From positions 558,001 through 622,000 of the forward strand of contig JAAOMT010000502.1 of NCBI GenBank assembly GCA_016748015.1: a stretch of DNA of 64,000 bases, given 5' to 3'. Positions 4,698-41,426 of the stretch are shown here, piece after piece. Positions within the stretch are counted from its first letter, which is position 1, and each line of letters begins with the position of its first letter. The DNA is from Geosiphon pyriformis uo1 (Eukaryota; Fungi; Glomeromycota). A program made the position numbers and the translations under genes. The notes below the pieces were generated by a model. That model did no database searches, was not told the DNA's origin, and worked only from the letters and a program-made list of their open reading frames with translations.

Positions 4698-5568
4698 TGT
4701 TACTCATAGAATATAAAAAATATATTATCACATGAAATAGCCAATCAGAAGTAGCTGTAGTAAATGTAGAATTTCAGAATTCCTTTCAAGAGGAATTGCA
4801 GAATTCCAGGAATTTCAGAATTTTCTGTGTGAGAAATTGCAGGATTCCAAAATTCCAGAATTCCTCTCAAAAAGAATTGCAGGATTCCAGAAATCTCAGG
4901 ATTCCTGAGGTAAAGAATTGAGGAATTAAGGAATCTCAATTATGTATATATAGCAGTAGTATTAGAAGTAGAAAAGGCAGAATTCTTAGTTAGAAGATCT
5001 CTTCATTTAGATTTTATCTAAGCAACTTTCTAAAGCACAAATATCAATAAATAATTATTCACTATCTCAACCCACTCTCTACTATCAACATAAAGTGTTG
5101 ATAGTAATTAATACTTAACCACACTGGAACAATAGTTCTTGATCATGGCTATTGATAGGATACTAACTTGCAATTGCTTTTGTTATTTTCTTTATTTTTT
5201 TTATTTTCTTTAGTTCTGTTGTTATTTCTTTGGTTTTACTAAAATTGATTAAGGATTAAGTGCTGAGATACAAACGTCATAGGAACTGGTAAAAGACCCG
5301 TATAACAAGAGTAGAACACTCATAAATTTGAGAATAGCTTACAGAAGGATTACTGGCCACCATGCTAAGAAAAAAATTTGACGAAACTGCAGTTTTGGGA
5401 AGCTATGGATAAAACCATCAATTAAATCTCTATCCATTATACAAAGAACTCAACTTTAAAATCTTCAAATACAACCAACATACCAGTGTTACCAGTCTTG
5501 TTAAGATATTGAGCACCAAGTTGCAGATTTGTTATTTGATTTAAAACCCCAAATAATCATCTGTAATA
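4698..5568 (+). repeat. 5' LTR of A
   Basis: Direct repeat of 14046-14918; CCAAT box, GGAATTCCA-like array, TATATATAG, AATAAA. Confidence 0.95.
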
Positions 5569-5570
5569 TT

Positions 5571-5587
5571 TGGTGCTCTCTGTGAGG
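5571..5587 (+). promoter_or_regulatory. Primer binding site of A (TGGTGCTCTCTGTGAGG), probably elongator tRNA-Met
   Basis: TGG start 2 nt after the LTR; same motif in B, C, D and G. Confidence 0.85.
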
Positions 5588-5627
5588 TATAATTCTACAG
5601 AAAACCAGCACCAACAATTAATCAACA

Positions 5628-8600
5628 GTGGCAGAATCAGAAAGTATAGGAGCAAACCATTTAGGATTCACAAAATCCTTATTTTAACACTATTGTCAAC
5701 ACTTGCAACTAAATCACAATCATATATTAGCAAAATCAGCCTTTAATTTCTATGTCAACAAGAAAATTGCCTATTTGTTAGGAACACTAGTAAACACTGA
5801 ATTAGTGAGAGAAACTTTCTACCACGAATTAATACAAAACACCAGCTTACCAACAAATCATAATTTTGCATTTATCATCACTAAGATTAACAAAGAAATT
5901 GAACATCATACACAACAAAGATACCCAATCACCTACTTAAGTAAAGGCAAAGGAAAACTACAAACACCAGCAATAACACCTCAACAGATCTAACCATTCA
6001 CTTGAAAGAAACACAGAGTTGAATTACCCACAAATCTATCATATCATTATACTCTGGGAAGCACCATCCATATCACATCACCAAATGCATCCACATCAAA
6101 CATGACATCAACATTTGAATGATTCCTATTCCAAAGTAAACAAAGGAAAACAGAATTACTAGACCCATATGGCAAATATTTTGAAGGATTTCAATTACAA
6201 ACACCAATACCATTAGGAATTCGATCACCACCATCTCCACCAGATTTCGGGATAGCTGATTCGTAAGAAGCATCAGAATTGGAAAAAGAAAAAGAATCTG
6301 AGGATCAAAAATTTTACTTACCAAAACCCGATTCCAGAAAACCCGGAAGTTGAAATCCCGAATGTTCAAACTCTGAAAAATTTAAATCAAGAAAATTCAA
6401 AAATCAAGACTTCGAATATTCAAACACTACAGAATCAGAATATTCTAAACCCCAATTTAGTCAATCAACCGAACTTACCTCCAAATATTGTCATCAATTA
6501 CCCACCAATTAACCCAATAGCACAACCACTACTTCAACAACCAAATCAGCAAATTCAACAGCTGCAACAACAACTTCAACCACTTATTGAACAGCAACAA
6601 CCAAACGTAGACCCAATGGCATACACACCAATTGCAAAACTTAACAATTTTACTGGCAAAGAAAATAATGTTCAAGTATAGCTAAACAATATTGAGAAAG
6701 CCATTACTGCAAATGGATGGAATGATGCCAAAGCTCTTTAAGCAATCTTATACTTTCTCAAGAACACTGCCAATTCCTGATATCAGAGCCTAATCAATAA
6801 ATCCCAGGACTTCAATGCATTCAAACTAGAGTTCTTAAGATATTTTAGTAACAATAATAGTATCAATCAATTGACAAACACCTTCACCACTATTAAACAA
6901 GGGGACACAGAAACAGTTACTACTTACTTGGGACACTTCCATCAAAATCTGTGCCAAATCCAAGCAATTAATGCCAACTATTTCACAGTACCACAAATTC
7001 TAAACCAATTTATTAGAAGTCTGTGCAGTAGCATCCTCCAATGCATACATCCAATACATCCAGCAGACCTTCAAGCTGCAGTTACCAATGCCAGAGATTT
7101 TGAAGCAGCTGAACTTAAAGCTAATCATGCCCAAGCTGTAAATCTAGTGATAAATGAATCATCTGAATTGGATTCCAAATTGAAACAATTCAGTGACTCC
7201 ATTAACCAGAAGCTTGAGAGGTATTTAGCTAACAATTGCGCAATTTATCAGCCACCCTAATGATGCAATAATTTAGGAATCACAAATTGCCCAGAAAATT
7301 AGTCACGTTTCTCATTATCAACCAATCAACCATGGCAGCAAGAAATGCATATCTGCCATTATTGTAATAAACAAGAACATTTGAGAATTGATTGTCAGTT
7401 AAGAATAGAAAACCAACGATTGGAAAATCAATATTGAAACCCCAATCACTGGTTTTCAACTCCGAGATATCAATCAAATGCAGAAATATATCAACCAAAT
7501 TACATACTTATAATGCAGCCACAAATTTATTAGCTGCCAATTTATTAGCCAACAGCATCTATCATTTATCACCCACAGCTCCAACCCATTTATTAGCTGC
7601 AGCCTCAGGTAATCTACCAACTGCAACAAATTCAAATACTGCTGCAGAACTTATCTCAAAACAGAACTCAAAGGCCAAGACTAACACAGCAAAGCTGGAG
7701 ATTGTTGATGGTGGTTCATCAACCAATTCCTAGTTTCATGGCACAACCATCAGGTTCTTGACAACAGAATTCGAGTACCGGTTCCACTCAAAATCTGAAT
7801 TCCCAACACTATTTAAGTCTCTTAGTTACTCCAGAAGACACCACCTCCCACAACTCAGAATCCAATCGACAACCAGTACTTACTAGCAACATACCTCCAG
7901 CCACTGTCACCAATGACAAAACATTGGCCACCATATTCTCTTTTAAACTCGAGGAAACCACAATGGTACCATTATTCAGTAAAGCCGCCTTAAAGAAAAA
8001 ACCCATCACAATAATGTACACTGATGTGAAAGTTGATGACCACTCCATCAAATTGATTCTAGATAGTAGATCAGTTGACAGCATCATCACAAGACAATTC
8101 ATGGATCAATTAGGTTGCTGAGTTGATCAAGCTGCCAGCACAAGAATCATTACTACTGATGAAGCAACCAAAACTCCTATTGGTGAAATTAACAACTTCC
8201 CTATAGAAGTCAATAGCATAATTATCTCAATCAAAGTACTAGTCATGGAAGCCACTCAGTACCAAGTGCTAGTTGGTAATGACTGGCTCACCAAAACAAA
8301 TGCCATCCTCGATTGGACTACTTAAGAGTTGCAACTTAGCCAAAATGGCCAACACACATGAGTACCAGTAACATGTAGCCATTTCAAACCCAATCACATA
8401 CCAGTCCCACTAATCAACTTAGAGGAAGAAAAACCAAAACCCACCTGGAAAGCATACTAAGTGTTATGGATTGATGTTGACTACAATGAACTACTGCCAA
8501 TACTCGTCTGGGATGACAATAACCAAGAAAAGAGAAAAAAAAAAAAAAGAACTTACCTGGAACACTAACCAAGCCTGGGAAATTAACAACAATTAAGAAG

Positions 8601-11600
8601 ACCCATCAACCTAGAAGTAGCAGGAAAGCAATCAAAAAAAAGAGAAGGGAAACAAAGAAAACCAACTTGAAACCAACAAAACCAACAAAGCCAGCACTAG
8701 TGGCTGGAGAAGATCCTATTCAACCAACACCAGACCAGAGCCACCATGTATTCCTTTCAAGTGCAAAAACTGCAACAAAAAATTGTCCTCAATAAAAGCT
8801 TGGGTTGCACCAGACAAAAACTATTGGATGCGCACCTATTACTATTACAAACCATGTCACTGCAAACACTATGAATACTCCAAGAGACAAGGCAAGTGGG
8901 ACAATGAACCATGTCTCGCTTGTGGAGAACAACTGCTTGATGAAGGGATGTGGAATGACATTCTTGATAGAGGAGGAACATGTAACACTTTGTGCCAGTA
9001 CATAATCCTCATCAGTAACTGGGTGAGTTGTGGAACACCCATTATAGTAGCCTGGCACTAAGTGATCTCTCACTTAAAAGGTTATCTACACAACGAGAAT
9101 GAGATCTAGTGAATGGTCAATGCCAAAGTAGAAGGCACTTCACCCAGTAAAATTCTGGAAATCAAGAACAACTCTCCAGAACCAACAGATATTGTGTTGG
9201 TTCTCAACTTGGACGCCTTTTTCGACTTAGAAAACAGCCTAGAAGAATTCCATGAACACTATTAGAATCTAGCACCCATGAGAAAAGAGCAAGAGCAATG
9301 TTTAGAGAAAATCAATACCCAATTATGTAATCACTGTTTAATTCCATGTGACTTCCAATTCTGTAATGATTGTGACCTCATTTACAATCTACTATCATGT
9401 ATGATCTACACAATTCCAGAAAAAAAAGAACCAATTAGCAGCTGCACATTGGAATTGGAATCAGTTTTTGATCCTAATTCAAACTCCAACAATGATGATG
9501 ACAAAAACACTGATTTCAGCTCCATTCAAAACGGTAATGAAAACAACAGCAAATGGAATTTCAATTCAAACCCAGAAATATATATCACACTCTCTGATCT
9601 CACCAAGGAGCAGACCTTGAAATGGTTCAGTGATAATGAGGAAGGAATCATGCCAGAATGTGTGCATGATATTAATGCTGGGTTTGATCTGAGGTATTTA
9701 GGGAAAGATGCCATTAAATTAGAGTCACATTCACACATTTGCATCGATCTGAAAATAGCATTAAAAATACCAGCAACAACTATGGTTCAACTAGCTTCCA
9801 GAAGTAGTTTAGCAAAAAGAGGGATTACTATAAGAGGAGGAATAATTGACACTGGATATGTGGGAAATATCATGGCAATACTACAAAATAACTTAAAAAA
9901 GACCTATATCATAGAACCAAATAAAAAAATAGCACAGGCAATATTCCTGCCTCTGATTAGAGTAGCTCAGTTAGTATCAGTGGGAAAAAAAAAAGAATTA
10001 GGAATAACAGCTAGAGGAATACAGGGATTTGGACCCACAGATAGAACAGACATACCAGTCAATATGGCAGAAGAAGAAATTATTGGCCAAGAAGAAATTA
10101 TCTCAACTGGTCAAGTAATTTCTATTCCACCATATGACCAGTACATGGTAGTTATAGAGAGAAAAGTGAAAGATAAGGATCAGATTTTTGAAACAGAAAC
10201 AAGCCTTTGTGAATCAAGAGAGATTGGACTTATCAATCTCCACATACCAGCCAAAAGCCACAACCATATCAAAATTTTCATTTACAACACAACAGAAGAT
10301 ACCATCACAATACCAGAGGGAACTATTATTAGATACATGAGCACTGAATTAGAAAATCAACCACCAAGCATTATTTCAGATTTTCCACAGCTATGTGGAT
10401 ATGTGAATATCACATCACAAACAATCTACAGATGAAATGAATATTATTTGCTCTAACCAGAACAATTGGAACAAATGAACATGAGAAATTTGGATCCACT
10501 CCAACATATACAACTCAAAATATTACTCAACAACTTCAATGACATCTTCACTAGTAAAAATGAATTTGGCAGAACTGATATCATCCAACATCAGATCAAG
10601 ACTAAAGATACTATGCCAATCAAACAACGAGCCTACAGAGTACCACCAGCCAGCCATAAAATCATCTGTTAAGAGATCAACCAAATGCTTAACAATGGGC
10701 TAATTCAGCCATCTATAAGCCCATGGTCATTATCAATAGTATTCATCCAAAAGAAAAATGGAAAGATCAGATTTTGTGTGGACTACAGAAAACTCAATGG
10801 AGTCACTCATGGAGACAGCTATTCAACTCCACAAATTCATGAGCTATTCGATGCTTTTGGAGGTAATAAATGGTTCTCAACACTGGATCTAAACAGTGGA
10901 TATTAGCAGGTAGCCATGGATCCAACAGACAAAGAAAAAATGACTTTTATGATGAGAGAAAGGAATTTCAAGTTTGAAGTTATGCCATTCGGTTTGATGA
11001 ATGCTCCAGCCACATTTCAATGGCTAATAGAAATAGTATATACTGGTTTATTGTGAAAATCAGTAGTAGTCTATTTGGACAACACTAATGTGTTCTCAAA
11101 AACATTTGATAACTATCTATATCATCTCCAACAAGTGTTTGAAAAACTGAAAAGAGCTGGATTAAAATTGAATACAACAAAGTGTTTCTTTGGCAAAACA
11201 GAACTCAAGTTTTTGGGACATATAGTGAGCAAAAACAGCATCAAAACAGATCCAGACAAGATAGAAATAGTAAAAAAATTTCCAGTACCAACCAACATGA
11301 CCAAGTTAAAATCATTCTTGGGATTTGCAGGCTATTATTGCCGCTTTATCAAGGACTTTTCTAAGATAGCTCAGCCACTTAATCATCTCCAAACCAAGAA
11401 TGTAAAATATGAATGGACTGAAACCCAGCAAGAAGCATTTGACATCTTAAAAAGAAAGCTTATTCAAGCTCTAGTATTGATCTATCCAGATCATAGTAAA
11501 TCATTCATTATTACCACTGATGCATCAAGTCAAGCATTGGGAGCAATGCTATCTCAAAGAGAATCAGATGGAAGAGAACATCCAGTCACATATGCCAGCT

Positions 11601-11875
11601 GAAGTTTAACTCCAGCTGAGAAGAATTATGGAACACCAGCATTAGAACACTTAGCAATCTATTGAACAGTCATGAAATAGAAAGAATACTTGAATCAGAG
11701 ATTTGAAATATACACTGATTACAAGAAATTGACAACAATTCAAAAACAAAAATTTGGAGATGATCAACATGCAAGATGGAAAATAGCACTATCACTATTT
11801 AATTATACAATATATTACAAAAAGGGAAAAGACAATGAAAATGCCAATGGTTTGTCGCAAAAGAGACAAATATAA
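5628..11875 (+). pseudogene. gag-PR-Cys-rich-dUTPase-RT-RNaseH polyprotein of A
   Basis: Retrotransposon gag, decayed CCHC knuckle (~7333), ILDSRS protease site, RT FCVDYRKLN and YLD(D/N), RNase H TDAS; many stops and a few frameshifts. Confidence 0.92.
9650..10040 (+). pseudogene. dut: dUTPase domain in A
   Basis: Five trimeric dUTPase motifs: AGFDL, RSSLA, GGIIDTGYVG, IAQAIF, RGIQGFG. Confidence 0.92.
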
Positions 11876-11936
11876 AAACATTTCAACCCAAAAATATAAC
11901 AAAACCAAACCAAACCCAATAAAAATATAACAAAAG

Positions 11937-13313
11937 ATGAACACACAAAAATACCAACAGCTTTAACACTATATAAATACTCAACAGTTCAAGGAGAAAT
12001 TATCTCAAAAGGAACGAAATAGCATTAAGCAACAATCAAAATATTTTATCAATCATCAAAATATACTTTACTAGAAGAATAGACAAAATTCAGATCAACC
12101 AACCAGAGTAATTACAGAGCCAGAAAAAGAAACAATACTGTTCAACATATACTCAGATCCAACAGCAAGATATTTTTACAAAGAAGCAACCATAAAAAGA
12201 ACCAGAAAAAGATACTATTGGCCATTAATGTATCCAGACATCATCTAATATGTTCAAAATTGTGATGCTTGTCAAAGAAGAAGAGAAACAAAACCCAGTA
12301 AACCATTAAGACTAATCAAAATAGGACAACCATTTGATCACATTGGAATTGACTTAGTCGGACCATTAACAATCACCAGCAGAGGCAACAGATATATTGT
12401 AATAGCTATGGACTATCTCACAAAATGGCCAGAAGCAAAAGCCATTCAAAGAGCAGATGCAGAATCCATTGCCGAATTCATTCATCAAGATTTGATTTGT
12501 CAACACGGATGTCCAAAAAAATTATTATCAGATCAAGGAACTCACTTTGTGAATAAAACATTGGCAGAATTGAGCCAGAGATTCGGAATTAAAAGACTAT
12601 TATCATCATCATATCATCCACAAACCAATGGATTAGTCAAAAAATTCAACAAAACATTGTGTAAAGCAATCGCCAAAATCAGCCAAGAAAACCAGAATGA
12701 ATGGGATTTGTTTATACCATCAGTATTATTTGCTTATTAGACAATGAAGCAAGATACTACACAAGCAACATCATTTGAATTAGTATATAGTAGGACAACA
12801 ATATTACCAGTTGAGATAGAAGTAAACACATATTCAACAGAACCAATAAAAGAAAAGAATTTCCAAGAAACATTGTTAAGAAGAACATATGACTTAATAG
12901 AAACTCTAGAAAACAAATGGCGAAGAGCAGCTGACAACATACAAAAGTCACAAGAGAAACAGAAAGAAAGACATGATAATCAACTACCAAGGAAACCAGT
13001 TGAATTCAAAATTGGAGACAAAGTACTATTACATTGTACCAAAGTGGAAAAACAATGGAGTGGAAAATTTGACTCCAAATAGGATGGACCATTTCACATA
13101 AAAGAAATTTTAGGAAATAGAACTTATAAATTAAGATTGAACAGCAAAATCTTGACAAAAGCAGCACATGGAGATCAACTGAAACCATACTACAATATAG
13201 TATTACCATCTACTAATAACATTCCACAATTGGGAGTACAGAGACTATTAATCTAACCAAATAAGATTCTATGAGATTTAGAACCAATTATCATTATCAA
13301 CACAAACACATAA
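11937..13313 (+). pseudogene. Stand-alone integrase ORF of A
   Basis: Own ATG; YYWP..CDACQ zinc-binding region; GIDLVGPL, DYLTKW, SDQG, YHPQTNGLV; GPF C-terminal module. Confidence 0.9.
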
Positions 13314-13374
13314 AAGTAATCGACCAAAAAGAATATATAAAGACATGATAGACATGACAAAAGATATCAGAAAA

Positions 13375-14031
13375 ATGGAGATTACTGATAACATCCACTT
13401 ACTAGCACAACAACCATTTCAACTGATTCAACAACAGAATATAGAAATTACTATCAATCAACAAACCATTCGATACTGAGATACCAGAAAGATACCCAAA
13501 TACAAAAGTAAAAAGAAAACAGAAAACACCATCAACAAAATGGTTCTAAAAATAAAATTAGCAATTGTGAAACCAACAAGTATCACCACATATCAAGAGT
13601 TGACCAAAAAAACATGGAAATAGTGGATACACAAATTTCCAAAAAACTTCTGTTACTTTCACTTGGGATGACACTTGAATATTCAGAACTTATATATGGA
13701 TAAAACAAAACAATTATTCAATACAGCAATACTACAACAACTAGAACAATTTGTGGAAAAGAACAATTTGACCACACAAGCAAGAGCTATCTATCAGCTA
13801 CATATGGGATTTCAAGACAGACCAGAAATCTTACTTAATCCAGAATTGGACTCCATTACAATTAACCAAATGGGAAAAATAACCAACACCCAATTTGAAG
13901 AATTGCAGAACCAGATAACTCAAATAATTCTTGAAAGAGAAGTTCAAGAAATACTTAATAACAAAGAATTAAAGTTAGGAGATTTAGGAGATTTGGGAGA
14001 TTTGGGAGATTTCAATAGAGCTCAATATTAA
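13375..14031 (+). pseudogene. ORF3 of A (unknown function, not env-like)
   Basis: ~220 codons between IN and PPT; homologous in B and E; no transmembrane stretch. Confidence 0.75.
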
Positions 14032-14045
14032 AAAAGAGGGAATAA

Positions 14046-14918
14046 TATTACTCATAGAATATAGGAAATATATTAGCACATGAAATAGCCAATTAGAGGT
14101 AGCTGTAGTAAATGTGGAATTCCAGGATTCCTCTCAAGAAAAATTACAGGATTCCAAGAATTTCAGGATTCTCTATGCAAGGAATCGCAGGATTTCAGAA
14201 TTTCAGAATTCCTCTTAAAAGGAATTGCAGGATTCCAGGAATCCCAGAATTCCTGAGGTAAAGAATCAAGGAATTGAGGAATCTCAATTATGTATATATA
14301 ACAGTAGTGTTAGAAGTAGAAAAGACAGAATTCTTAGTTAGAAAATTTCTCCGTTTAGATTTTATTTAAGCAACTTTCCAAAGCACAAATATCAATAAAT
14401 AATTATTCACTATCTTAACTCACTCTTTACTATCAACATAAAATGTTGATAGTAATTAATACTTAATCACACTGGAACAATAGCTCTTGATCATGGCTAT
14501 TGATAGGATACTAATTTGTAATTGCTTTTGTTATTTTTTTTATTTTCTTTTATTTTCTTTAGTTCTGTTGTTATTTCTTTGGTTTTACTAAAATTGATTA
14601 AGGATTAAGCACTGAGATACAAACATCATAGGGACTGGTAAAAGACCCATGCAACAAGGGTAGAACATTCATAGATTTGAGGATAGCTTACTAGGAGGAT
14701 TACTGGCCACCACACTGAGAAAAAAATTTGACGAAACTGTGGTTTTGAGAAGCTACAGATAAAACTATCAATTAAATATCTGTTCATTATACAAAAAACT
14801 CAACTCTAAAACCTTCAGATACAACCAACGTACCAATATCATCAGTCTTGTCAAGATATTAAGCACCAAGTTGCAGATTTGTTATTTGATTTAAGACCCC
14901 AAATAATTATCTGTAACA
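14046..14918 (+). repeat. 3' LTR of A
   Basis: Direct repeat of 4698-5568. Confidence 0.95.
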
Positions 14919-23952: not shown

Positions 23953-24630
23953 TGTTATGGTTGAAACACATAGTTTTTATTAATTATCACATATATTAGC
24001 CACTAATGTCATATAATTAGCCACCCTATTTTTAGATAGTGATCGTTGACCTGATTAATAACCTGACCATTGACTTGATCATTGACCTGATCATTGACCT
24101 GATTGTTGACTACTTTAGATAGCTATATAAGCGATGATTCCCTTAGCTGTAGAAAGACATGATCAAAGTAACGAAATAAACAATATCAATTACTTCCTCT
24201 CATAATTGCTTATTCCCCTTTCCTTATCTTCAAGTATCTACTTGTTGACATTTACATATCTTATCTTTTCCCCTTCTTGATTTGTATTTGTTAGAATTAG
24301 CCTGAGAAGCAATTGGCTTGTTCTTGTAATTCATTGAATAAAGAAACAATTGAAAAGTACAACGATACCTGTTATTGATTCTAAGAATTGCCGAGTTGAG
24401 GCATAGAATAATAGCAGCAGTGTTATCTTGTTGACAATCACGGACTATTCCTCTACCTTCAGATTTAAAAAAATATTAGCGACTGTGATTTTTATGAGAC
24501 TGATCATGCACATTAAATTCCTACTTATTTAATTTGCTCCCTTATTGTAATTCCTTCTTTGTTTATTTCCATTACCATACAATACTGTTCTCCCTTGCTA
24601 TCCGTTAGCTTGTTACTCCAACCCGTAACA
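23953..24630 (+). repeat. 5' LTR of C
   Basis: Direct repeat of 30945-31586; 12-mer (cattgacctgat) array followed by TATATAA. Confidence 0.95.
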
Positions 24631-24682
24631 TAAAAGTGGTGCTCCCTGTGAAGTTGTCAAAATTTACTTATTCCCTCATTGT

Positions 24683-26233
24683 ATGGGTGATTACTTATAT
24701 CTGCTACAGCAATCAGAAGAACACTTTGTAGTACACAACAAAAACGACCAAAGTTTCATTGAACTTAATCCTCTGCCCTTCTGCTTGATCTGCTTCCCCC
24801 TTGAAGAACAATCCAGTAGACAATTCCAAGACTTTTGGAACTGGTTCCTGAATGAGCATACAGCTGAAACCTACACAGCTTATACAACCTATTACTTTGA
24901 CTAAGCTTATTTTGAAAACGACTTTGAAGAAAGAAACAACAGTATCAATCAGCTCTTATATTCTGCAACCTTTGAACAACAGCCCCTTGATTTCGAATAT
25001 CTGAATCATCAAATCCACATTTGGATTGCTGCCCATCAAGCAACTGAAACTCCCTTTGAAACAGAAGAAGAAAGCTACCAAACTGCCTCTGTTTTTGATC
25101 TTTTATCAAGCAAATCAGACTCGTCTGCACAAACAGTTACCCCTGAACCAATGGCTAATGACCCCATGCAAGCAAACATTCTGGCCGCCCTCCAAGGTAT
25201 ACAAACTGCTCTAGGCTGAAGAAACAACACCCCAATACCATTATTTAGAGGTGATGCACAAGATCCAATTGAATGGTTGGATGACTTTGAAAGAGCTGCT
25301 ACAGCCAATCAATATAATGATGAGTACAAATTCCAAATTGTTGGTGGCTACCTTCAAGGATTCCCTGCTACCTGGTTTTCACAAGAAACAAATGCCAATG
25401 CCCAGCAAAGAATCATTAAATGGACACCAGCAAATGTGGGAGAAATCAACACTTCTTTTACTACCCAGTTTGAAAACAAGTTCAGAACCCCAATATTAAT
25501 ATCAAAATGGTGTATGAAATTGGAAAAAAGAACCCAAGGTCCTGGTGAAGTTGTAACCGAATATGCCAAAGCAATCAGAAAGTTAATCAAACAAGTAGAC
25601 ACTGGAAGAAATTAGACAGAAGAGCAGAAAATTCACTCCTTCACAAAAGGATTGAGAACTGATCTATCGTATGTTCTTTGGCCTCTTCTGGTCCTAAAAG
25701 ATAATCCCACCATGGATATGGCCATTGAATTAGCACAAAAAATTAAAGACAACCAAAGGATGCACTTGGGATCCACACTACCAGTTTTTGCTCCTGTTCC
25801 TGTCATGGCTTCTATCTCTCAAATAGCTGCTATTTCTTTTGCCACTCACACTCAAGATCCAAATGAACAGTTAATAGACAGACTCACAGCAAATCTTGCT
25901 CAGTTATTAGAACCCTTAGCCCAAGCAGTCAGAGAAAATTAGCAACCACAAAGACCCAGATTTGAACCATGCTTCAATTAGCCCCAGCAACTACCTTATC
26001 AAAGACAACAAAATCATGGCCCACCTGTATGCTATCACTGTGGATTAACTGGACATTTTTCAAGAGATTGCAACAATCCTCTACTGCCTCCACCAGTCTC
26101 CAGAAACAATGATGCTCAAAACAACAGGATCAACAACAACAATGTGCCCAACCAAAGACCCAATCATGCCAACATCAATTTCTTTGGAGAGGACCCCCTA
26201 GTTGAAGCCACTGCTTATCAGTCTTTAAACTAG
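24683..26233 (+). pseudogene. gag of C
   Basis: DPIEWLDDFERAA gag core; CYHCGLTGHFSRDC knuckle; ends at the stop directly after TTTAAAC. Confidence 0.9.
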
Positions 26234-28898
26234 TAAGCGCACCTCCAAAGGGTGAGAGTGCAAGCCAACCAGAAGAAAACCCCTTTTACACTTTTAATTT
26301 AACTGATGATAACTATGACATAGATGAATTAGCAATCAACCCCTCTGAATTTACAAGAAAGAAGAAGAAAGCCAAAGTTGATTTCGTTCTAGACCCCAAT
26401 AAAGCTTCTATATCAACTGCTAACAACAATGAGCCCCCAAAAGCCAAAGTTTTCAAGAACTCTCCAAAGTTGGAACTCCCAGAAATAGTACAAAAATCCA
26501 GTCCCTATTCTGTTGTCAAAGACCTTATAAAAACCCCAACACATATAATCTTTGGCCAATTGATGACCCATCCACAATTCAGAAAAGATCTTTACAAATT
26601 CCTGATTCCAAAGAAAAAGACACCCAAAACCAACAAATGCTCTTGCCAAGCTAGACTTGCTGACAATAGTAATGTTACTCCTCTAATTTGTAAAGCCCAA
26701 GTGGCTGGCTACTTTATTGATTTGATTCTAGACAGTGAATCATCTGTTAGTGTTATTGCCAAACACTTTCTTGAAGCAATTGGCAGAAAAATTGATGAAC
26801 CATCTACACGACCAATGACCAATGTACATGGTGATAAGAAAAAAGGGCTTGGCATAGCCAAAGCTATTCCTGTCCACATCAATGACATCAGCATTGAAAC
26901 TGATATGGAAGTGTCTGAAGCAAAAGAATACACCATCATTGTTGGCAATGAATGGCTCAAGAAAGCAAAGACTTAGCTTGATTATGAACTCTGTGAACTA
27001 ACTATCAGATGTGGTGAGAAACCCATTGTGGTTAAATGTCGCCATTAGACAACTCCCCCAGTACCCAAGCAGAGCCCAGAAGAAAATAAATCAGATGAAT
27101 CAGATGATGAAGAAAGTGAGAAAGAAGAAGAACAAGAAAAACAAGAAGAAACTGCTGAACTCGCCTATACCATCTTCACTAGTAATGGCAAACCACTGAA
27201 TAATGTCAAGGCAGATAAAAAAGGAATCATTGTCAATGGCAAGCTAATCTGCTGGCCTTATTATGACATGCTCAGAAGAACCTTTGACAGAAAGCCAGGC
27301 AAGAAAGCCAAATACAGTTATTGGTGGCATGGTCCTTATGCCTGGTGCTGGTGCGACAAACCATTGTATTCTCCTAGCAATGAATGCATGTCCTGTCTGA
27401 TCTATTACAAAGATTGGGAACCAATCAGCTTGATACTCCAAGAAGAAATAAAAAAAGTTCAAAAGTCCTTTGAAAACGAACCACCTGAAATCCAATCACT
27501 GGTTGTAGAACAAAGAGAACCCTCTCCAGAAGAAAGAAAAGTAGACATTGAAAACCTGCTGGCTAGAAACAGCCCAGTTATCTCAAAAAAAGGTGAACCT
27601 CCTGGATGTACACATGTGATACAACACACCATCATCACCAGAGAAACTCGCCCCATCTATTTGAAGCCCTATCAATTCAACCAGCACAATGATGAATTTA
27701 TAAAAAAAGAAATAACCTGAATGAAAACCCTTGGATTTATACAGGAAACCAAGAGTAAATAGGCATTCCCAGTTGTAGTGGTATCCAAGAAAGAAGGAAC
27801 CCTATGCTTTTGTGTTGACTATTGCCAATTAAATGCCATTATTGAAAGAGACATGTACTCACTTCCCAAGATTGATGCAATGCTAGACCAATTCCATGGT
27901 GCCGCTTTCTTCTCAACTATTGACTTAACTGCTGGATTCTGGCAAGTAGAGATAGATCCAGAAAGCAGAAAGAAAACTGCTTTCATCACCAAGTATGGTA
28001 CCTATGAATTCACAATTATGCCTTTTGGTCTCACAAATGCTTAATAGACAAAGTATTTGAATCAGTAAAAGAAAACTTTGTTCTAGTCTACTTGGATGAC
28101 ATAATGGTATACTCAAAAATCTGGGATGAACATCTTGAACATTTGCAAAAGGTTTTTGACCTCCTTAGAAATGCTGGTCTCAAGATCAATTCAATCAAAT
28201 CATTCTTTGGATGTCAATCCACCCAGTTCCTTGGCCATCTTATTACAAAAGATGAAATTTTTCCTGATCCAGCCAAAATTGAAAAAGTTCAAAACATTAG
28301 ACAACCAATGAATGTTCATGAACTATGCTCTTTTCTTGGTTTGGCCTCTTATTATTGCAAGTTTGTCAAGAATTTCTCCAAAATCACTGCTCTTTTCAAT
28401 CAGCTACTTAGGAAAAACATCAATTATTACTGGGGCACTTATCAACAAAAAGCATTTAAAATTCTGAAGGAAAAACTGGTTACAGAACCCATCCTTATAC
28501 AACCTAATTTGGATCAACCTTTTATCCTCCACACTGATGCATCTGGCTATGGACTTGGTGCTGTTCTTTCCCAAAAAGATAAAGATAACAGAGAACACAC
28601 CATAGCATATGCCAGTAGAACTCTCACACCAGCAGAAAGGAACTACTTAGTTACTGAGCAGAAATACTTAGCAGTAGTTTGGGCTACCAGCTACTGGGAC
28701 AAATATCTTAAAAGTGTGAAATTTTTGGTGGTAACAGATCACCAAGCTTTGGTTTAGCTATGCAACAAAAAAAACTTGGAACATAAACAGATAACTCACT
28801 GAATACTTCACTTGGATAAATTCGACTATGACATTCAATACTGCAAAGGAGCTAATCATCAAAATGCCGACGCTCTCTCCAGACTTACCATCCAGTGA
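26224..28898 (+). pseudogene. pol (PR-RT-RNaseH) of C, in the -1 frame relative to gag
   Basis: LILDSES, FCVDY, YLDD, TDAS, NADALSR, then TGA TAG TAA. Confidence 0.9.
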
Positions 28899-28963
28899 TA
28901 GTAAAACCCTCTCAAACCAAACCAACTTAATTATTTGTAACTTCCCCACAAACAAACACAATA

Positions 28964-30271
28964 ATAGACTTGGACAACTACTCTGCTTTAATGAAATTTT
29001 TGGGTAAAGGACAATATCCACTGGACTATATTCAACAGCAAAGAGAACATTTGCGCAAACAAACAAATTTCTATTTGATTCGCCAAAACCAGTTATATAA
29101 AAGAAATAGAAAAGATCTTGACCGCTCCCAGAGAGTCATTAAATTTGAAGAAAGAGAAATTGTGATCTACAATATGCACACTGATCCATTAGCTGGACAC
29201 TTTGGAAAAACAAAAACAATTCAGAAAACTTTAGCTCGTTATTATTGGCCTACTTTGGGAAAAGACATTGCTGAATACATCAAAACCTGTAATACCTGCC
29301 AAAGAAGAAAAAAACCCAATCGCAAGGAAGATATCCATCCAATCTCTGTTGGTCAACCATTTGATAGAATTGGTATAGATGTTGTTGGACCTTTAACCGT
29401 AACTCCTGATGGCAACAGATACATTATCACAGCTACCGACTATCTTACAAAGTGGGTAGAAGCAAGAGCCACCCCAGATCAAACAGCAGTCTCAATTGCC
29501 AATTTCATTTATGAAGATATTATCTGTTATCATGGCTGCCCCAAAAAACTTTTATCTGATAGAGAAAGAGCTTTTCTCAGTACACTGGTTGAAGAACTTT
29601 GCAGAAAAATGGGAATACGTCATAAACTCTCTTCCTCTTATCACCCCCAAACAAATGGCCTAGTGGAATGTTTCAATAGAACACTATGTGAAACCCTAGC
29701 CAAAACCAGTGAAAAAACCAACCTATGGGACAAAGTATTGTTTTCAGCCTTGTTTGCTTACAGAACTGTGAATCATGACATAACAAGTTATGAACCTTTT
29801 TATCTGCTCTATGGACAAATGGCAACTCTACCAATAGAAACAGATATAGAAACAATACCTTTTGAAGAAATAACAATAGGAGATTACAAAGACATTTTGC
29901 AAAGAAGACTTGGTATCATTCTTAACTCATTAGTAAAAGCACGGATAATTGCCTTTGAAAAGATAAAACAGGTCCAAGAGAAGCTCAAAAAGAAAAAGAC
30001 CTATAAAACACTTTCCTTAAGTGTTGGTGACTTAGTTTTGGAATACCATTCAGACAGAGACAATGTCTATGGTGATAAATTCTCTAGCCGGTGGAAAGGA
30101 CCCTTTATAGTCAACAAAGTTTTGAACAATGGTTCTTATATCTTACAAGATCAATATGAAACAATATTCAGTAATCGCCCTGTTCATAACAAGCAACTCA
30201 AGAAATATCACAAACGACCTGATTGGTTACCTGTTGTGATAATACTGACCCAAATGATCAGCAAAAATTAG
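28964..30271 (+). pseudogene. Stand-alone integrase ORF of C (start ATG>ATA, otherwise open for 433 codons)
   Basis: H..H..CNTC, GIDVVGP, SD, YHPQTNGLVE, GPF. Confidence 0.92.
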
Positions 30272-30318
30272 ATATAAATAAATGCACTATTCCCAAAACA
30301 GAGGTATCTTCAATCGAC

Positions 30319-30975
30319 ATGAACAATTATTTTCTGGATCAAAACATTCAAAACGCTTTCTATACTCTTCATGAATACTGGATCAAGAACTATCCAAATG
30401 CTACTCTGACTATCGGAAAACAAACCACTATAACAGACAACAGTGGAACTCACACTGTTATTAGACCAAAGAAAACAACTACCAGAAGAGAAAAAATTGG
30501 TGGCAAAATAGATAAATACCTGCTGGAAAGCATAACAGCAGCAATACTTTTACCTTCCAGCACAATTGGAAAAACAATACAAAAAATCTTGCCCATAGAC
30601 AAAAACTTGTCATATGGAAAACAACTAGAACTCTATGATTGTCTTGGTGAAATTATAGAAGACATGAAGCTCATGAAGAAAAATACTTCAGAGATACAAA
30701 TGGAAATTTTGGGCATTATACGATTGAATGTCCCAAGAGTTTTGACCATTGCTAGAAGAGCCAGAACTCTAATACAAAGATTTGGTCTCTTGGATACAAA
30801 GCTTATTTCACCTCAAGTACTATATACTCTATCCACAAAAGACTTCAACAAACTAGTTAGTTTTGAGTTAGACAAAACCCTTCACATAAACTATCCCATA
30901 AATAGTTTGATTTCGCTGGAGCTCAATCTCTTTGGAGAGGATGATGTTACGGTTGAAACACATAGTTTTTATTAA
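30319..30975 (+). CDS. ORF3 of C, intact frame running into the 3' LTR; unknown function
   Basis: Open ~218 codons from the ATG; conserved in D (57987-58642). Confidence 0.75.
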   Translation: MNNYFLDQNIQNAFYTLHEYWIKNYPNATLTIGKQTTITDNSGTHTVIRPKKTTTRREKIGGKIDKYLLESITAAILLPSSTIGKTIQKILPIDKNLSYGKQLELYDCLGEIIEDMKLMKKNTSEIQMEILGIIRLNVPRVLTIARRARTLIQRFGLLDTKLISPQVLYTLSTKDFNKLVSFELDKTLHINYPINSLISLELNLFGEDDVTVETHSFY

Positions 30976-31586
30976 TTATTACATGTATTAGCCACTGATG
31001 TCATATAATTAGCCACCCTATTTTTAGATAGTAATTATTGACCTGATCAATGACCTGACCGTTGACCATTTTAGATAGCTATATAAGCGATGATTCTCTT
31101 AACTGTAAAAAAACATGATCAAAGTAATGAAATAAACAATATCAATTACTTCCTCTCATAATCGCTTATTCCCCTTTCCTTACCTTCAAGTATCTACTTG
31201 TTGGCATTCATATACCTTATCTTTTCCCCTTTTTGATTTGTATTTGTTAGAATTAGCCTGAGAAGTAATTGGCTTGCTCTTGTAATTTATTGAATAAAGA
31301 AATGATTGAAAAGTACAATGATATCTGTTATTGATTCTAAGAATTGCCAAGTTGAGGCATAGAATAATAGCAGCAGTGTTATCTTGTTGATAATCATGGA
31401 CTATTCCTCTACCTTCAGATTTAAGAAAAGATTAGCAACTGTGATTTTTATGAGACTGATCATGCATATTGAATTCCTACTTATTCAATTTGCTCCCTTA
31501 TTGTAATTCCTTCTTTGTTTATTTCCATTACCATACAATACTGTTCTCTTTTGCTATCCGTTAGCTTGTTACTCCAACCCATAACA
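30945..31586 (+). repeat. 3' LTR of C
   Basis: Direct repeat; 36 bp shorter than the 5' LTR (three fewer 12-mers). Confidence 0.95.
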
Positions 31587-32606
31587 ATATTAAAAAACTT
31601 AATAAAAACTTAATAATCTATTAAAAATAATATTAAAACAAAAAAAAATTAATCTTGTTTATTATGTATTTAAATTTAATAACAAAATATTTTAATTATA
31701 AATTAAAAATTAAAAAACCAAAAAATAATATTATTAACCAATTATATATTTAAATATAATTTAATAAATACAAAATTATAATATTTATTAATAAAAAAAA
31801 GAAATAAAATCAAGTAAATCACTAAGACCAATTAAATTAAACAATTATTTGATTAAATTAGAATTGACTTAATTAAATTACTAATTATAATATTCAAAGA
31901 TAACAAATATATTATTATTATTATAAATTATTTTACCAAATAGCCAAAAACTAAAACAATTCAAAATAAAATAATAATTATATTAATAAAAATAAAAATA
32001 ACAATATATCTAATTAAATTAATAATTAAAATTATATTTTAAGAAATATTATTAAGATAAATATATAATTTAGTAAAAATATTAAAAAACAAAAGAAAAA
32101 AAACAGTTAATAATATTAAAATATTGTTATGGTTAAAATCCATAATTTTTATTAATTATTACATATATTAGCCACTGATATCATATAATTAGCCACTCTA
32201 TTTTTAGATAGTGATCATTGACCTGATCAATGACCTAACCATTGACCTGATTATTGACCTAATCATTGACTTGATCATTGACCTAGTCATTGACCTGGTC
32301 ATTGACCACTTTCAATAGCTATATAAGCAATAAGTCTCTTAGCTATAGAAAATTATCTCTTAGACAAGAATCAAATAAATAAAAATAACAACTTTTATCT
32401 CAATCACTCTTTTATTGCTAATTTCTCTTTCTTTACCTTCAAGTATCCGAACATCTTAGGATAAAAGATTACTTGTTGGCTTTTTCCTGATGTATATAAT
32501 TGTAGCATTTGATGATTATTTGAATAAACGTGACTGAAGAGCACAAGTTGATATCTGATATTGAATTCTAAGAGTGCTGATGTGAGGCATAGAATTATAC
32601 CAGTGG

Positions 32607-33489
32607 TGTTACTCATAGAAATATAAAAAATATATCAGCATAATTATTAGCCAATCAGAAGTAAGCATAGTAAAATGTGGAATTCCAGGATTTTTCTCAG
32701 GAATTGCAAGATTCCAGGAATTTCAGGATTCCCAATGAGAAATTACAGGATTCCAGAATTCCAGGATTTCTCTCAAAGAAATTGCAGGATTCCAGAAATT
32801 TCAGAATTCCTGTCATGAAGAATCGAGGAATTGAGGAATCTCAATTATGTATATATAGCAGTAGTATTAGAAACAGAAAAGACAGAATTGATACCACAGA
32901 ATTCTTAGCCTAGAAATGCAATCATTAAATAAATAATTATTTTATATCTCCATCCAATTCCCCACTATCAACCCTTTATGTTGATAGTAATTGATACTTG
33001 ACTACACTGGAACAATAGCTCTTGATTACGGCTATTGATGGGATACTAATCTGCAAATCGCCTTGGCTTATTTCTTTGTTTTCTTTATTTTTTTTTATTT
33101 TTTTTCTTTATTTTATTTTGATTTGTTGTTATATACTAATTGAGAAACGATTAAGTGCTGAGTTATTGACGTCAAGGATAGCCTGGTAAAAGACTCAGAA
33201 ATATGGGTAGGATTTTATATATTATCGGATAGCTTACCAGAAAGGCATGACTATCAGACTAAATTTGGCCATCACACTGAGAAAGAAATTGGGAAAACTC
33301 TTGAAAAATATCTCTACTATTGACACTATTGAATCTTTGTCCATTATACAAAGGACTCAACCAAAACCTTCAGATCCATCAAAACCTTCAGATACAGCAC
33401 CTGCAGAACAGCCTCAACAGAAGTAGCTTTTGAGCACCAAGTTACAGATTTGTTATTTAATTCAACAGCAGAAATAATCACCTGTAACA
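32607..33489 (+). repeat. 5' LTR of B
   Basis: Direct repeat of 51173-52055. Confidence 0.95.
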
Positions 33490-33551
33490 TTTGGTGCTCC
33501 CTGTGAGGTATAATCCTACAGAGAACCAGCACCAACAACACCAAACCAAAA

Positions 33552-36500
33552 GTGGCAGAATCAGAAAACATAAGAGCAAACCATTTAGGATTCGCAAAAT
33601 CCTTATTTCAACACTATTGTCAATACTTGGGATTAAATCACAATCATATATCTGCCGAATCAGCCTTCAACTTTTACGTCAACGAAAAGATTTTCTCTTT
33701 ATTAGGAACATCAGTGAATACTGAATCAGCAAGAGAAACTTTCTATAAAGAATTAATTCAAAACACCAACCTATCAACAAATCATAATTTTGCATCCATC
33801 ATTACTGAGATCAACAAAGAAATTGAACACCACACTCAACAAAGATATCCAATTACATACGCTAGTAAAGACAAGAGAAAATTACAAACATCAGCAGTAA
33901 TACCCAGAAAATTACAGCCACTTGCTTGGAAGAAAAACAGAGTTAAATCCCCAAGCAACCCATCCTACCACTATACACCTGGAAGTGCCATCAACATATC
34001 ATCAACTGATGTGTTCTCATCAACTGCGACATCAGCATTTGGACGATTCCCATTCCAAAGTAGACAAAGGAAAACAGAATTGTTAGGACCATATGGCAAA
34101 TACTTTGAAAGATTTAATTCGCGATCATCAACCCCATCAGGACTTTGATCACTACCGCCTCCACCAGATTTCAGAATCTCTGATCCGTGGAAAGCAGCAG
34201 AATCAGAAAATAAGGAAGAAGAATCAGAGGATCAAGAATTCACTTACCTACACCTGATCCCTGAAAACCCCAGAAGTTGAAACCCCGAACATTTAAACTC
34301 AGCAACAGTTAGAAAATCCGGAAATCAAAACTCTGAATATTTGAACACCGCCAAATCCAAGAAATCAAAACCCTGAATTAATTAATCAGCAAAACTTACC
34401 TCTGGTAATTATCGTCGATCAACTGCCAATTAATCCCATAGCTGAACCCATACAGCAGCCACTACAATTACCACCCCAACAACTACTTCAACAGCCACCA
34501 CAACTACCTAACTTAGACCCAATGGCCTATGCACCCATCACAAAACTCGACAACTTTACTGGTAAAGAAGATGATGCTCAAATATGGCTGAATGATGTAG
34601 AAAAGGCCATTGCAGCCAACGGATGGAATAACGCTCGAGCAATACAAGCCATTTCCTACTTTTTCAAGGATACTGCTGATTTATGGTATCAGAGTTTGGT
34701 TAATAAACCACAAGATTTCAATGTCTTCAAAGCGGAATTCCTAAGATACTTCAGCAACAACAATAGTATCAATCGCCTAGTTAATACATTCACCACCATG
34801 AAACAAAAAGAAACTGAAGCAGTCACCACTTACCTGGGACGCTTCTATTGAAACTTGCGCCAAATTCAAGCAATTGACGACAACTATTTCACAGCACCAC
34901 AGATACTCAACCAGTTTATCCATGGCCTACGCAGCAGCATCTTGCAACATGTACATTCATTGCATCCTGGCATGCTTCAAGACGCAGTCACATGCGCCAG
35001 AGATTTTGAATCCGCTGAGTCAGAAGCTAACCATGCCCAAGCCATTAATCTAGTAATAAACAGATTATCTGAATTGGATTCCAAATTGGAGAAGTTCAGT
35101 GAATCAATTAATAAGAGATTAGAAGGATACTTAGCTGACAATCACGCTATTTATCAGTCTCCACAATGACACAATAACCAAGAAAATTCCAATCATGGCC
35201 AAAATCAACCACGTTCATTTTCATCAACTAATCAACAGTGGCAACAAGAAATGCATATCTGCCACTATTGTGGTAACCAAGAACATATCCAAATTGACTG
35301 TTGCCAGCATTTAAATAACTAACAATCAGAAAATCAATATTAAAACCCTAATCGCTGGTTCTAAACTCTGAATCATTATCCAAATCAAAGTCAAGACCAA
35401 TATCGGAATAATTACCTGCCAATGACGCAGCAACCAATCTATCAACCACCAGTATATCAACCTCCAATTTATCAGCTGCAGCTACAAGTAATATATCAAC
35501 TGCAGCCACAAATCATCTATCAACTCCAACCAATTCAAACACCACCCCAAAACCCAGTTCAAATGACATCAGGCAATCCTCAATCCAGAGTCACTCAAAA
35601 CTGGAGATCGGCAATGGTTGTTCACCAACCAATTCTCCATTCGCTAGACCCACCATCAAGATCACGCACCTGGAATTTGGATACCAGTCGCATCCAAAAC
35701 CCAAATTTCCAACATTATTTAAGTCTCCTGGTTACCCCAGAAAATGCCACATCCAACAACACAGAATCCAATCAGCACATACCTACCAACACAATTCCAC
35801 CGGCAATCATCTTTAGCAACAAATTCTTAGCAGCCATCTTTCTTTTCGAACTCGAAGAAAACACACCAATACCATTATTCAGTGGAGCTACTCTCAAAGA
35901 GAAACTCATAACAGCAATGTACACAGATGCCAGAGTTGATGGTCACCCCATCAAACTCATCCTAGATAGTAGATCAGCTGGCAGCATAATCACAAAACAA
36001 CTCATGGATCAATTAGGTCACCGAGTTGATTGAACTGCTAGCGCCAGAATCATCACAGCCAATGGAGCGACCAAAACTCCAATTGGCAAAATTGACAACT
36101 TTTCTTTTGAAGTCAATGACATCGTGACTCCTATTAAAGTTCTAGTGATGGAAGCCACTCAATACTAAGCTCTTGTTGGTAATGACTGGCTATCCAAAGT
36201 CAATGCAACGTTAGACTAGAACACCCAGGAACTCCAGCTAATGTATCAGGGCCAACACATACATGTCCCGGCCACGTGTGGCCACTTCAAAACTCCTCCA
36301 AGAGAGAAACTATTGATCGAACTGGAGAAAAAGAAAGAAAAGCCTACTTGGAAAGCCTACCAAGTGTCGTGAATAGACAAAAAGCACAATGAACTACCGC
36401 CAATACTCTCCGGGGATGACAACAACAAGGAAAAAGGGAAACAGAAGGAAAAACTTACCTGGAAAACTGATGATCTGACATGAACTGACAACAATGAGAG

Positions 36501-39500: not shown

Positions 39501-39744
39501 AACACCAGAACAAGAACACTTACCAATATACTGGGCCATCATAAAATGGAAAGAATACTTGAGCCAGAAGTTTGAAGTATACACTGATCACAAGAGATTA
39601 ACATCACTCCAAAAACAAGAATTTGGAGATAGAAGACAGTCAAGATGGAAAATGGCACTTGCACCATACAATTATACTATACATTACAAAAAGGGAAAAG
39701 ACAATGGAAATGCTGACAGTTTATCGCGAATAAGACAAATATAA
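33552..39744 (+). pseudogene. gag-PR-Cys-rich-dUTPase-RT-RNaseH polyprotein of B
   Basis: Single frame from 34522 to 39744 interrupted by stops; ILDSRS; dUTPase ~37518-37908 (AGFDL, IIDAGY, RGIQGFGST); YLDD; TDAS. Confidence 0.93.
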
Positions 39745-39807
39745 GAACATTTCAACCCAAAAATATAATAAAACCAGAACAATACCAACAAAAAATACAA
39801 CAAAAAG

Positions 39808-41047
39808 ATGAACATACAAAAATATCAACAATTGCAACATTATCTAAACACTTAACAGTTCAAGGAGAATTTATCTCATACAGAATGAAAGAGTATCAAA
39901 CAACAATCAAAATATTTTATCACTCACCAAAATATACTTTATTGGAAAAATAGAAGGGATCCAGATCAACCAATCAGAGTAATTACAGAGCCAGAAAAAG
40001 AGACAATATTATTTAACATGCATTCAAATCCAACAGCAGGACATTTTCACAAAGAAGCAACTATGGAGAGAACTAGAAAAAGATATTATTGGCCATCAAT
40101 ATACCCAGACATCATTCAATATGTTCAAAATTGTGATGTTTGTTAGCAAAGAGGAGAAACAAGACCCAGTGAACCATTAAGACCAATCAAAGTGGGACAA
40201 CCATTTGACCGTATGGGAATTAATTTAGTTGGACCATTAACAATCACCAGTAGAGGAAACAGATACATAGCAGTAGCTATGGACTATCTCATTAAATGGC
40301 CAGAGGTGAAAGCAATTCAAAGAGCAGATGCAGAATCTGTTGCCAAATTCATTTATTAGGATTTGATTTGTCGACATGGATGTCCAAAAGAATTATTATC
40401 AGACCAAGGAACTCATTTTGTGAACAGAACATTAACAGAATTAAGCCAAAAATTCGGAATCAAGAGACTATTATCATCACTATACTATCCACAAACCAAT
40501 GGATTAGTAAAAAGATTCAACAGAACATTGTGTAAAACAATAGCCAAGCTCAGCCAAAAAAACCAGAACGATTGGGATTTGTTCATATCATCAGTACTAT
40601 TTGCTTATCGAATAATGAAACAAGATACTACACAAGCAACGCCATTCGAATTAGTATATAGGAGAATAGCAACGTTACCAGTAGAGAGAGAAATTAATAC
40701 ATATCCAGCTGAACCAATAACAGAGAAAAATTTTCAAGATCGGAGACAAAGTATTACTACATTGTACTAAAGCGGAAAAACAATGGAGCAGAAAATTTGG
40801 ACCCAAATGGGATGGACCATTTTACATAGAAGAAATTCTAGGAAATAGAGCTTACAAATTAAAATTGAATAACAAAATTTTAACCAAAGCAGCACATGGA
40901 GATCAACTGAAACCATATCACAACATCACACTACCATCTACCAGTAATATTTCACAATTAGGAGTACAGAGAATACTAATCCAACCAGATGAGATTCCAC
41001 AAGATCAGGAACCAATCATTATTATTGACAACAACACGTTAAATTGA
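39808..41047 (+). pseudogene. Stand-alone integrase ORF of B (internal deletion at ~40740)
   Basis: Own ATG after the RNase H stop; HHCC and DDE-region motifs. Confidence 0.9.
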
Positions 41048-41426
41048 TCCATCAAAAGAATATATAAAGACATAGTAGACGCGACAGAAAATATCAAAAA
41101 AATAGAAATTAAAGACAATATTCACTCACTAGCACAACAACTCTTTCAATTAATCCAACACCAGGAAATGGAGATTACAATTAATTAACAAACCATTCGA
41201 TATCAAGATACTAGAAAGACATTTCAACTCAGAACACAGAAGAAAACTGAAAATAATGTGGACAAAATCATGGCAAAAGTAAAATTAGCAATAAAAGAAT
41301 TAACAAAAGAGTCACTATATCAAAAGTTGACTAAAGAAACTTGGAATTGGTGAATACAACAATTTCCACGAAACTATTGTTATTTTTACTTGGGACAACA
41401 CATAAATATCCAGAATCTATATATGG

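Follow-up and report, generated by a model that had tools for sequence, protein, structure and literature searches.

Integrase (IN) as the tail of Pol is a general rule in LTR retrotransposons and retroviruses, and it is the normal route by which the enzyme is packaged. Pol is described as containing protease, RT, RNase H and IN in excerpts of two published accounts (PMC12440569; PMC13524379). The retroelements of the locus described here have their IN outside Pol, and this raises the question of whether the separation is a genuine trait of a lineage and how a free integrase would then be made. We regard it as practically certain that the split between Pol and IN is the layout of a whole Gypsy-derived group. 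The fuller reading, that these elements belong to a decayed Ty3/Gypsy-type lineage, likely of Glomeromycotina, in which a separate IN gene has its own ATG and is likely made by termination-reinitiation, is one that we favour with considerable reserve. A description of the split layout was not found in a full-text literature search, which included excerpts of PMC12440569, PMC13524379, PMC5972666, PMC5009743, PMC12789967, PMC11075540 and PMC8647823; repeat libraries, Repbase or GyDB may hold such consensuses. In the main text of two Rhizophagus papers on transposable elements, Gypsy elements are named and the term 'ORF' is absent.

Retroelements of the window

The window, that is, the whole stretch of 64 kb analysed, is AT-rich and CpG-depleted, with a CpG observed/expected ratio of 0.10-0.43 inside the elements. 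It holds five complete Ty3/Gypsy-type LTR elements (A, B, C, D and F) and one partial element (E). F is nested inside B, and B inside the 5' LTR of D.

4698..14918, plus strand: element A, whole; LTRs about 90% alike; target duplication ATGT at 4694-4697
23953..31586, plus strand: element C, whole; LTRs 88% alike; target duplication ATAT at 23949-23952; order gag, pol (-1 frame), IN, additional 3' ORF
32125..59338, plus strand: element D, whole; B sits within its 5' LTR; target duplication ATAT at 32121-32124
32607..52055, plus strand: element B, whole; LTRs 93% alike; target duplication GTGG at 32603-32606
41427..50850, plus strand: element F, whole; target duplication ATGG at 41423-41426; 3' LTR partly a run of N (49781-50397)
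minus strand, running past the window end: element E, partial

The complete elements resemble canonical Ty3/Gypsy elements such as yeast Ty3 in many respects. All five have 4-bp target duplications and LTR ends of the form TG...CA, some of them decayed to TA (e.g. at the 3' end of D). Every 5' LTR is followed by a TGGTGCT-type, primer-binding-like site. In A, B, C and D purine-rich DNA stands before the 3' LTR, and in F this place is masked by N. The Gag of F contains a capsid and a zinc knuckle (Retrotrans_gag, Ty3_capsid and zf-CCHC domains), the domain order is protease-RT-RNase H-IN as in Ty3/Gypsy (Metaviridae), and the IN matches that of Ty3. Unlike in the canonical elements, IN lies outside the Pol polyprotein, and for this reason we file the group, by its sequence, as a Gypsy-derived variant lineage and not as a canonical Ty3/Gypsy member. 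Ginger and Maverick/Polinton elements also carry a stand-alone Gypsy-like integrase as an ORF of its own. A DNA transposon of this type, with terminal inverted repeats and no RT, was considered and rejected, because the IN of the window sits between RNase H and the 3' LTR of RT-bearing LTR elements with target duplications.

Several other features were observed in these elements. The five target duplications all match R-T-R-K, and a target preference is possible. A decayed copy of the F LTR (71% alike) at 16273-17229 is possibly a solo LTR. In F, a dUTPase followed by a weak spumavirus-protease-like match lies between protease and RT (45670-46962), with a cysteine-rich insert upstream of the dUTPase. 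Gag and protease share one frame in F and apparently in A and B. At the end of gag in C (about 26220-26235) and D (about 53870-53885), a TTTAAAC heptamer stands directly before the stop and pol follows in the -1 frame; the heptamer is likely a -1 frameshift site.

The junction between RNase H and integrase

All six copies in the window have a Pol stop 3-4 codons past the RNase H end motif, and in all six the IN profile match begins at position 1-2, 64-80 nt past this motif. The stop and the IN start are 30-67 nt apart. The features at and beyond the junctions are as follows.

11873..11875, plus strand: element A stop, TAA, 3 codons after the (decayed) RNase H end motif
11876..11936, plus strand: element A spacer, 61 nt with a single G and without ATG, unstructured; contains a 15-nt direct repeat
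11937..13310, plus strand: element A integrase ORF, ATG start, decay stops inside, end approximate
28896..28963, plus strand: element C junction, TGA ending at 28898 after RNase H, and 65-nt spacer
28964..30271, plus strand: element C integrase ORF, 435 aa, no stops; start decayed to ATA
30319..30975, plus strand: element C third ORF, 218 aa, after IN and a short spacer; also in D at about 57990-58642
39742..39810, plus strand: element B junction, TAA ending at 39744, 63-nt spacer, IN ATG at 39808
42445..48075, plus strand: element F gag-protease-dUTPase-RT-RNase H, a single frame of 1,877 codons with 10 decay stops inside
48076..48124, plus strand: element F spacer, 49 nt, between the stop TAG at 48073-48075 and the IN ATG at 48125
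48125..49489, plus strand: element F integrase ORF, 455 codons in the +1 frame, 5 internal decay stops
56562..56634, plus strand: element D junction, TGA ending at 56564, 67-nt spacer, IN ATG at 56632
63139..63174, minus strand: element E junction, TAA at 63172, 30-nt spacer, IN start decayed to ATA at 63141

When re-read on the window DNA, the stops, starts and spacers of A to F lie exactly where the first-pass annotation had put them. That annotation had placed the split in every one of six families; the split is present in all six copies, but these make up three families (A/B/E, C/D and F). Its description of the spacer as G-poor is borne out, because the six spacers contain 1-4 G each, compared to a mean of 7.5-10.7 in equally long windows taken from the coding DNA that flanks the spacer in A, B, C, D and F. 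The share of flanking windows as G-poor as the spacer was 0 for A, B and C, 0.0008 for D and 0.024 for F. No ATG was found in any of the six window spacers, and their folding energies of 0 to -0.4 kcal/mol correspond to unstructured RNA. Spacer lengths differ by 2 nt between A and B and again between C and D, and the spacer of E is that of A minus 31 nt lying between the two copies of the 15-nt direct repeat. Judging from these sequences, the spread of the spacers over frames 0, +1 and +2 is partly a matter of decay.

In D and F, where the IN frame is +1, it is open across the entire spacer. Stops that lie 6-36 nt upstream of the start close the IN frame in A, B, C and E; the spacer of B has two further in-frame stops. 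The junction stop codon itself varies among TAA, TAG and TGA. An A is found at -3 of the IN start in all ten junctions available as DNA (the six of the window and the related loci L119, L162, L006 and L005 described below), on a background that is A-rich. The two letters directly before the IN start are AG in A, B and E, and their G is the only one of the spacer in A and E.

Element F bears on whether the junction stop is itself a product of decay. The Pol/IN junction is the sole frame change in F, which is more than expected by chance. One public sequencing run, perhaps from the window's own sample, contained family F at high depth, and it is independent across F copies and not across hosts. 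The junction region (48020-48180) was represented by 353 contigs, whose summed depth is not a copy number. Conservation of the stop across copies had been proposed as a test in the first-pass annotation, and no variant of at least 2%, hence no sense variant at this level, occurred at the stop at a summed depth of about 32,000 (single contigs about 90). The sole variant in the IN ATG was G48127A at 3%, and the sole junction indel of at least 2% among other copies was a 3-nt insertion. The internal decay stop at 47533, which was the sole internal stop among the 40 of 1,106 variant rows listed, reads C in 39,419 of 66,613 (about 60%). The junction stop, in contrast to this reverting decay stop, does not vary among the copies and is not decay; the Pol stop is fixed across many F copies. 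Contig ends were loose right after the F stop and before the ATG, pointing to further subfamilies with different spacers. A search of two other public runs found next to nothing.

The enzyme encoded behind the junction appeared to be intact in C. Its IN contains the HHCC motif, the D139-D199-E235 triad, an N-terminal extension and a C-terminal barrel, and H72, H79, C109, C112, D139, D199 and E235 are invariant in 72 IN sequences. The predicted fold has a mean pLDDT of 89.8; its top fold match is foamy virus IN 3oyi (E 8e-22), and it also matches Ty3 IN 7q5b (E 7e-20, 440 columns), the matches spanning 420-440 columns. By this structural model, the C integrase is a complete enzyme including its N-terminal extension. 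The third ORF of C gave no Pfam match and no usable ESM Atlas match, and no match to the 3' regions of A, B, E, the locus L006 or the Cetraspora gene model P0121. Other 3' arrangements were seen as well. A further ORF follows the IN stop in L006, and its 3' region resembles the C-terminal part of P0121 (E 3e-5). In A, B and E there seems to be no fixed stop at the end of IN, and the frame runs on into a further helical region (A 13230-13700, B 41000-41500, E on the minus strand); E reads through this region and B has a TGA there.

Relatives of the lineage

The hosts named among the protein homologues were Glomeromycotina, namely Rhizophagus irregularis, R. clarus, Cetraspora pellucida and Entrophospora, and most matches were metagenome proteins. 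The best 120 of 981 IN homologues in the size range 239-762 aa are mostly 41-66% identical. A Met is present at the position homologous to the IN start in 98 of these 120: it is the start in 94 and stands within a longer upstream call in 4, while the other 22 start later. The residue after this Met is D or E in 90 of the 94, which places G at +4. Among longer proteins (best 120 of 332), identity exceeded 42% in three only, all of them Glomeromycotina gene models. Two of these pass over both the end motif of RNase H and the start of IN, and the third jumps from the RT start to IN. Three Rhizophagus clarus models likewise skip the end motif and the IN start, at another join. In the Glomeromycotina models that fuse RT-RNase H to IN (P0121, P0122, P0291, P0294 and P0301), three different joins were used and both the end motif and the IN Met were lost in all. 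The IN profile search without a length filter gave the same picture by score. Among the 150 matches listed, those with a best domain of at least 450 bits stood alone (14/14), those at 400-450 bits stood alone in 12 cases and were contiguous with RNase H in 2, and those below 400 bits were contiguous with RNase H in 81 of 122.

The Pol proteins end accordingly early. In the RT-RNase H search, the best 26 single-stretch matches of 122 lacked IN. The end motif was found in 57 of 60 IN-less Pols of the group, of which 43 end within 30 residues past it and 14 carry a tail of 76-396 residues. When the 122 members of ten Pol clusters were read, 84 reached the RNase H end motif and none contained IN; the tail length was fixed in eight clusters and took two values in the other two. 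One Pol subclade ends in NG-stop at tail lengths of 10, 20 and 25, with 11/11 members doing so in one such cluster. This ending suggestively fits an ATG that overlaps the Pol stop (ATG-GAT), within the subclade only, because NG/HE endings over all 60 Pols number 5 versus about 2.6 expected (dipeptide frequency 0.022) and are not clearly above chance. A subclade consisting of P0331 (of L006), P0304, P0309, P0311, P0318, P0327, P0337, P0340, P0342, P0347 and P0349 has tails of 214-396 residues between RNase H and the stop; where inspected, these long tails are acidic, and a Pfam search of the P0331 tail gave no match. Stand-alone integrases of 520-640 aa with long C-terminal extensions were also observed (P0525, P0526, P0567, P0571, P0572, P0576 and P0587).

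At the DNA level, 96 fetched loci were examined, of which 78 contained both domains; IN was absent downstream in 14 and the RNase H end in 4. The two domains were fused in 67 of the 78 and split in 11, three of which fall in the lineage by the RT tree (L119, L162 and, via its protein P0331, L006). Their spacers are 139, 117 and 102 nt long, each with five IN-frame stops before the ATG. L005 has a 94-nt spacer with four IN-frame stops, and the RNase H part of its upstream ORF is not on the contig. IN lies in frame 1 relative to Pol in L119 and L005 and in frame 0 in L162 and L006. The spacers of L119 and L162 contain other ATGs and fold to -20 and -11 kcal/mol, and with their greater length this speaks against simple scanning. 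That of L006 is G-poor and unstructured, in contrast to those of L005, L119 and L162, in which G makes up 10-17%. The eight split loci outside the lineage were considered as instances of the same trait and rejected, because the six inspected were single in-frame nonsense codons in a continuous Pol (L180 and L185 are the other two). L176, L182 and L184, Gypsy contigs outside the lineage which we take from a motif to be plant-type, have in common a TAG that lies 51 codons past RNase H. L179 has a sense codon at this position, and the shared TAG is probably decay. A metagenome scan yielded one locus, distant and fused (L001), and an IN scan of viral contigs yielded 3 weak loci. Many prokaryote genome records (L005-L007, L092-L170) contained contaminating eukaryotic retrotransposon contigs. 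A search for more junctions in the genomes behind L005-L007 found no new one.

In the RT-RNase H tree (75 rows, IQ-TREE), 54 split rows together with the fused P0124 stood apart from 20 fused rows (96/92). This tree excludes L150, L128, L172, L114, element E and 20 near-duplicate rows; 19 rows that were distant or partial, and one half of the fused rows that then remained, had been taken out before. In the IN tree (61 rows), 36 stand-alone rows together with the fused P0124, P0130 and P0131, which have long branches, stood apart from 22 fused rows (100/100). The RT trees consist of search matches with Gypsy-type domains and no curated reference elements, and the nearest neighbours are fused Gypsy-type Pols. 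By these trees the split trait is strongly clustered, and the split set is not cleanly one clade, with P0124 lying inside it in the RT tree and P0124, P0130 and P0131 in the IN tree. In P0124, 24 residues (about 72 nt) separate the RNase H and IN matches, which is close to the tail plus spacer of the window copies (64-80 nt). This suggests that the split layout may have arisen by gene fission within an old RNase H-IN linker. The first-pass annotation had proposed that IN is a cistron of its own, and the fixed F stop, the conserved IN Met, the ending of Pol at RNase H and the closed IN frame in the relatives all agree with this.

Expression of the free integrase

We suggest that ribosomes terminate at the Pol stop and restart at the IN ATG across a short, unstructured, AUG-free spacer. 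As a route for IN expression, termination-reinitiation stands, in our judgement, near the midpoint between likely and unlikely. It is favoured because the IN start lies near the stop even though the Pol tail of L006 is 346 residues longer, because the window spacers are short, AUG-free and unstructured in all six copies, and because one Pol subclade ends in NG-stop at differing tail lengths. Restart after a very long ORF is generally inefficient. TGGGA, a calicivirus-type reinitiation motif, was absent within 100 nt before the stop at all ten stops examined. In C/D, a -1 frameshift apparently has to occur before Pol can be made at all, so that IN would there undergo a second dilution. Precedents exist: excerpts of one source (PMC5972666) describe a 63-nt spacer across which restart has been proposed for LINE-1 ORF2, as well as the use of coupled termination-reinitiation by victoriviruses and hypoviruses of fungi. 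The window elements resemble these, and SART1 ORF2, in having a second long ORF shortly after a stop (PMC5972666, in part). However, LINE-1 and SART1 are non-LTR elements and the victoriviruses and hypoviruses are RNA viruses, the coupled ORF there is not an integrase, and the mechanism in the window is putative.

The simplest objection would be that nothing is split, either because an in-frame intron joins RNase H to IN or because the stops are mutational decay of an ordinary Pol. Five Glomeromycotina gene models do join RT-RNase H to IN, and the window is CpG-depleted and full of decay stops. However, the joins disagree and delete two conserved features, the end motif and the Met of IN; F copies in which a decay stop reverts show no change at the junction stop; and intact homologues retain the split. 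The first-pass annotation had named such an intron as the outcome that would speak against it; the model joins are inconsistent and share no branch point with acceptor. This explanation is already contradicted by the fixed stop, the IN Met and the Pol ends and is hardly credible. Readthrough of the Pol stop or a +1 frameshift programmed there, giving a Pol-IN fusion at least in F and C/D, is slightly less implausible and still very improbable. In its favour, spacer length is 1 mod 3 in A, D and F, no stop interrupts the IN frame along the spacers of D and F, and the sole common indel among F copies is 3 nt. The first two of these observations, together with the decay of the copies, weaken the argument of the first-pass annotation that differing spacer lengths modulo 3 exclude a frameshift. 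Its conclusion is nevertheless retained on other grounds, in that the IN frame is closed in 8/10 junctions (A, B, C, E, L119, L162, L006 and L005). With several IN-frame stops before the ATG in relatives (4-5 each, in frames 1, 0, 0 and 1), frameshift or readthrough is not the general route, and it is possible for D and F. Moreover, the stop codon differs between copies, a fusion would have no need of a conserved Met, and a spacer so poor in T and G is often open by chance.

The main rival is that IN is translated from its own subgenomic RNA, produced by an internal promoter in pol or by a long splice from the 5' leader, and we consider this unlikely but worth serious attention. A strong start context and a short unstructured leader would equally suit a capped 5' UTR, and AG directly precedes the start in A, B and E. 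A separate RNA would also account for the longer spacers and extra ATGs of L119 and L162 and for the 3' ORF in C/D and L006. Foamy viruses offer a precedent, because their Pro/Pol comes from a separate spliced mRNA and is recruited via Gag, as described in excerpts of PMC12789967. However, there is no conserved branch point with YAG (YTRAY is missing in A, in B, in the last 100 nt of L119 and in L162), and the AG positions differ among families. The ATG also stays within 30-140 nt of the stop even with the 346-residue growth of the L006 Pol tail, and there would be no need for such closeness if IN had an RNA of its own. In another rival, ribosomes would enter the genomic RNA internally, on its unstructured A/C-rich spacer and independently of upstream translation. 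This would fit the spacers of the window and of L006, which are strongly depleted in G and lack structure. It is doubtful, because the families have no conserved spacer sequence in common and because G is not scarce in L005, L119 and L162.

If termination-reinitiation is the route, IN would be made at a small fraction of the Pol level, and a lower IN:Gag ratio could be achieved without a frameshift. IN made on the genomic RNA would probably enter the particle in cis, bound to this RNA, to Gag or to RT, or else meet the cDNA after uncoating. Like foamy viruses (Spumaretrovirinae), the elements have an enzyme ORF set apart from the usual polyprotein, whose product would have to find a separate way into the particle (excerpts of PMC12789967). 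In foamy viruses, however, the whole Pro/Pol is separated from Gag and IN stays in Pol, whereas in the window elements it is RNase H and IN that are parted, with no sign of a splice. We put forward, more tentatively than the restart itself, that the lineage turned Pol into a polycistronic cassette of gag-pol, integrase and a further 3' ORF, with restart and with loading that does without a polyprotein.

A high-copy lineage without a Pol-IN fusion means that the fusion rule is not a requirement. Two questions become testable in a simple system, namely how a free integrase reaches the cDNA and by what means the ribosomes of fungi can restart once they have translated a very long ORF. There is also a consequence for annotation. 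Gene predictors invent introns across the junction, and IN ORFs are named transposases or host-like proteins; with such wrong models and names, intact elements are likely miscounted in mycorrhizal genomes. If our reading is true, the lineage would represent a new way of bringing integrase to retroelement cDNA, and its junction would be a natural reinitiation element that functions in fungi after a long ORF of up to about 1,900 codons.
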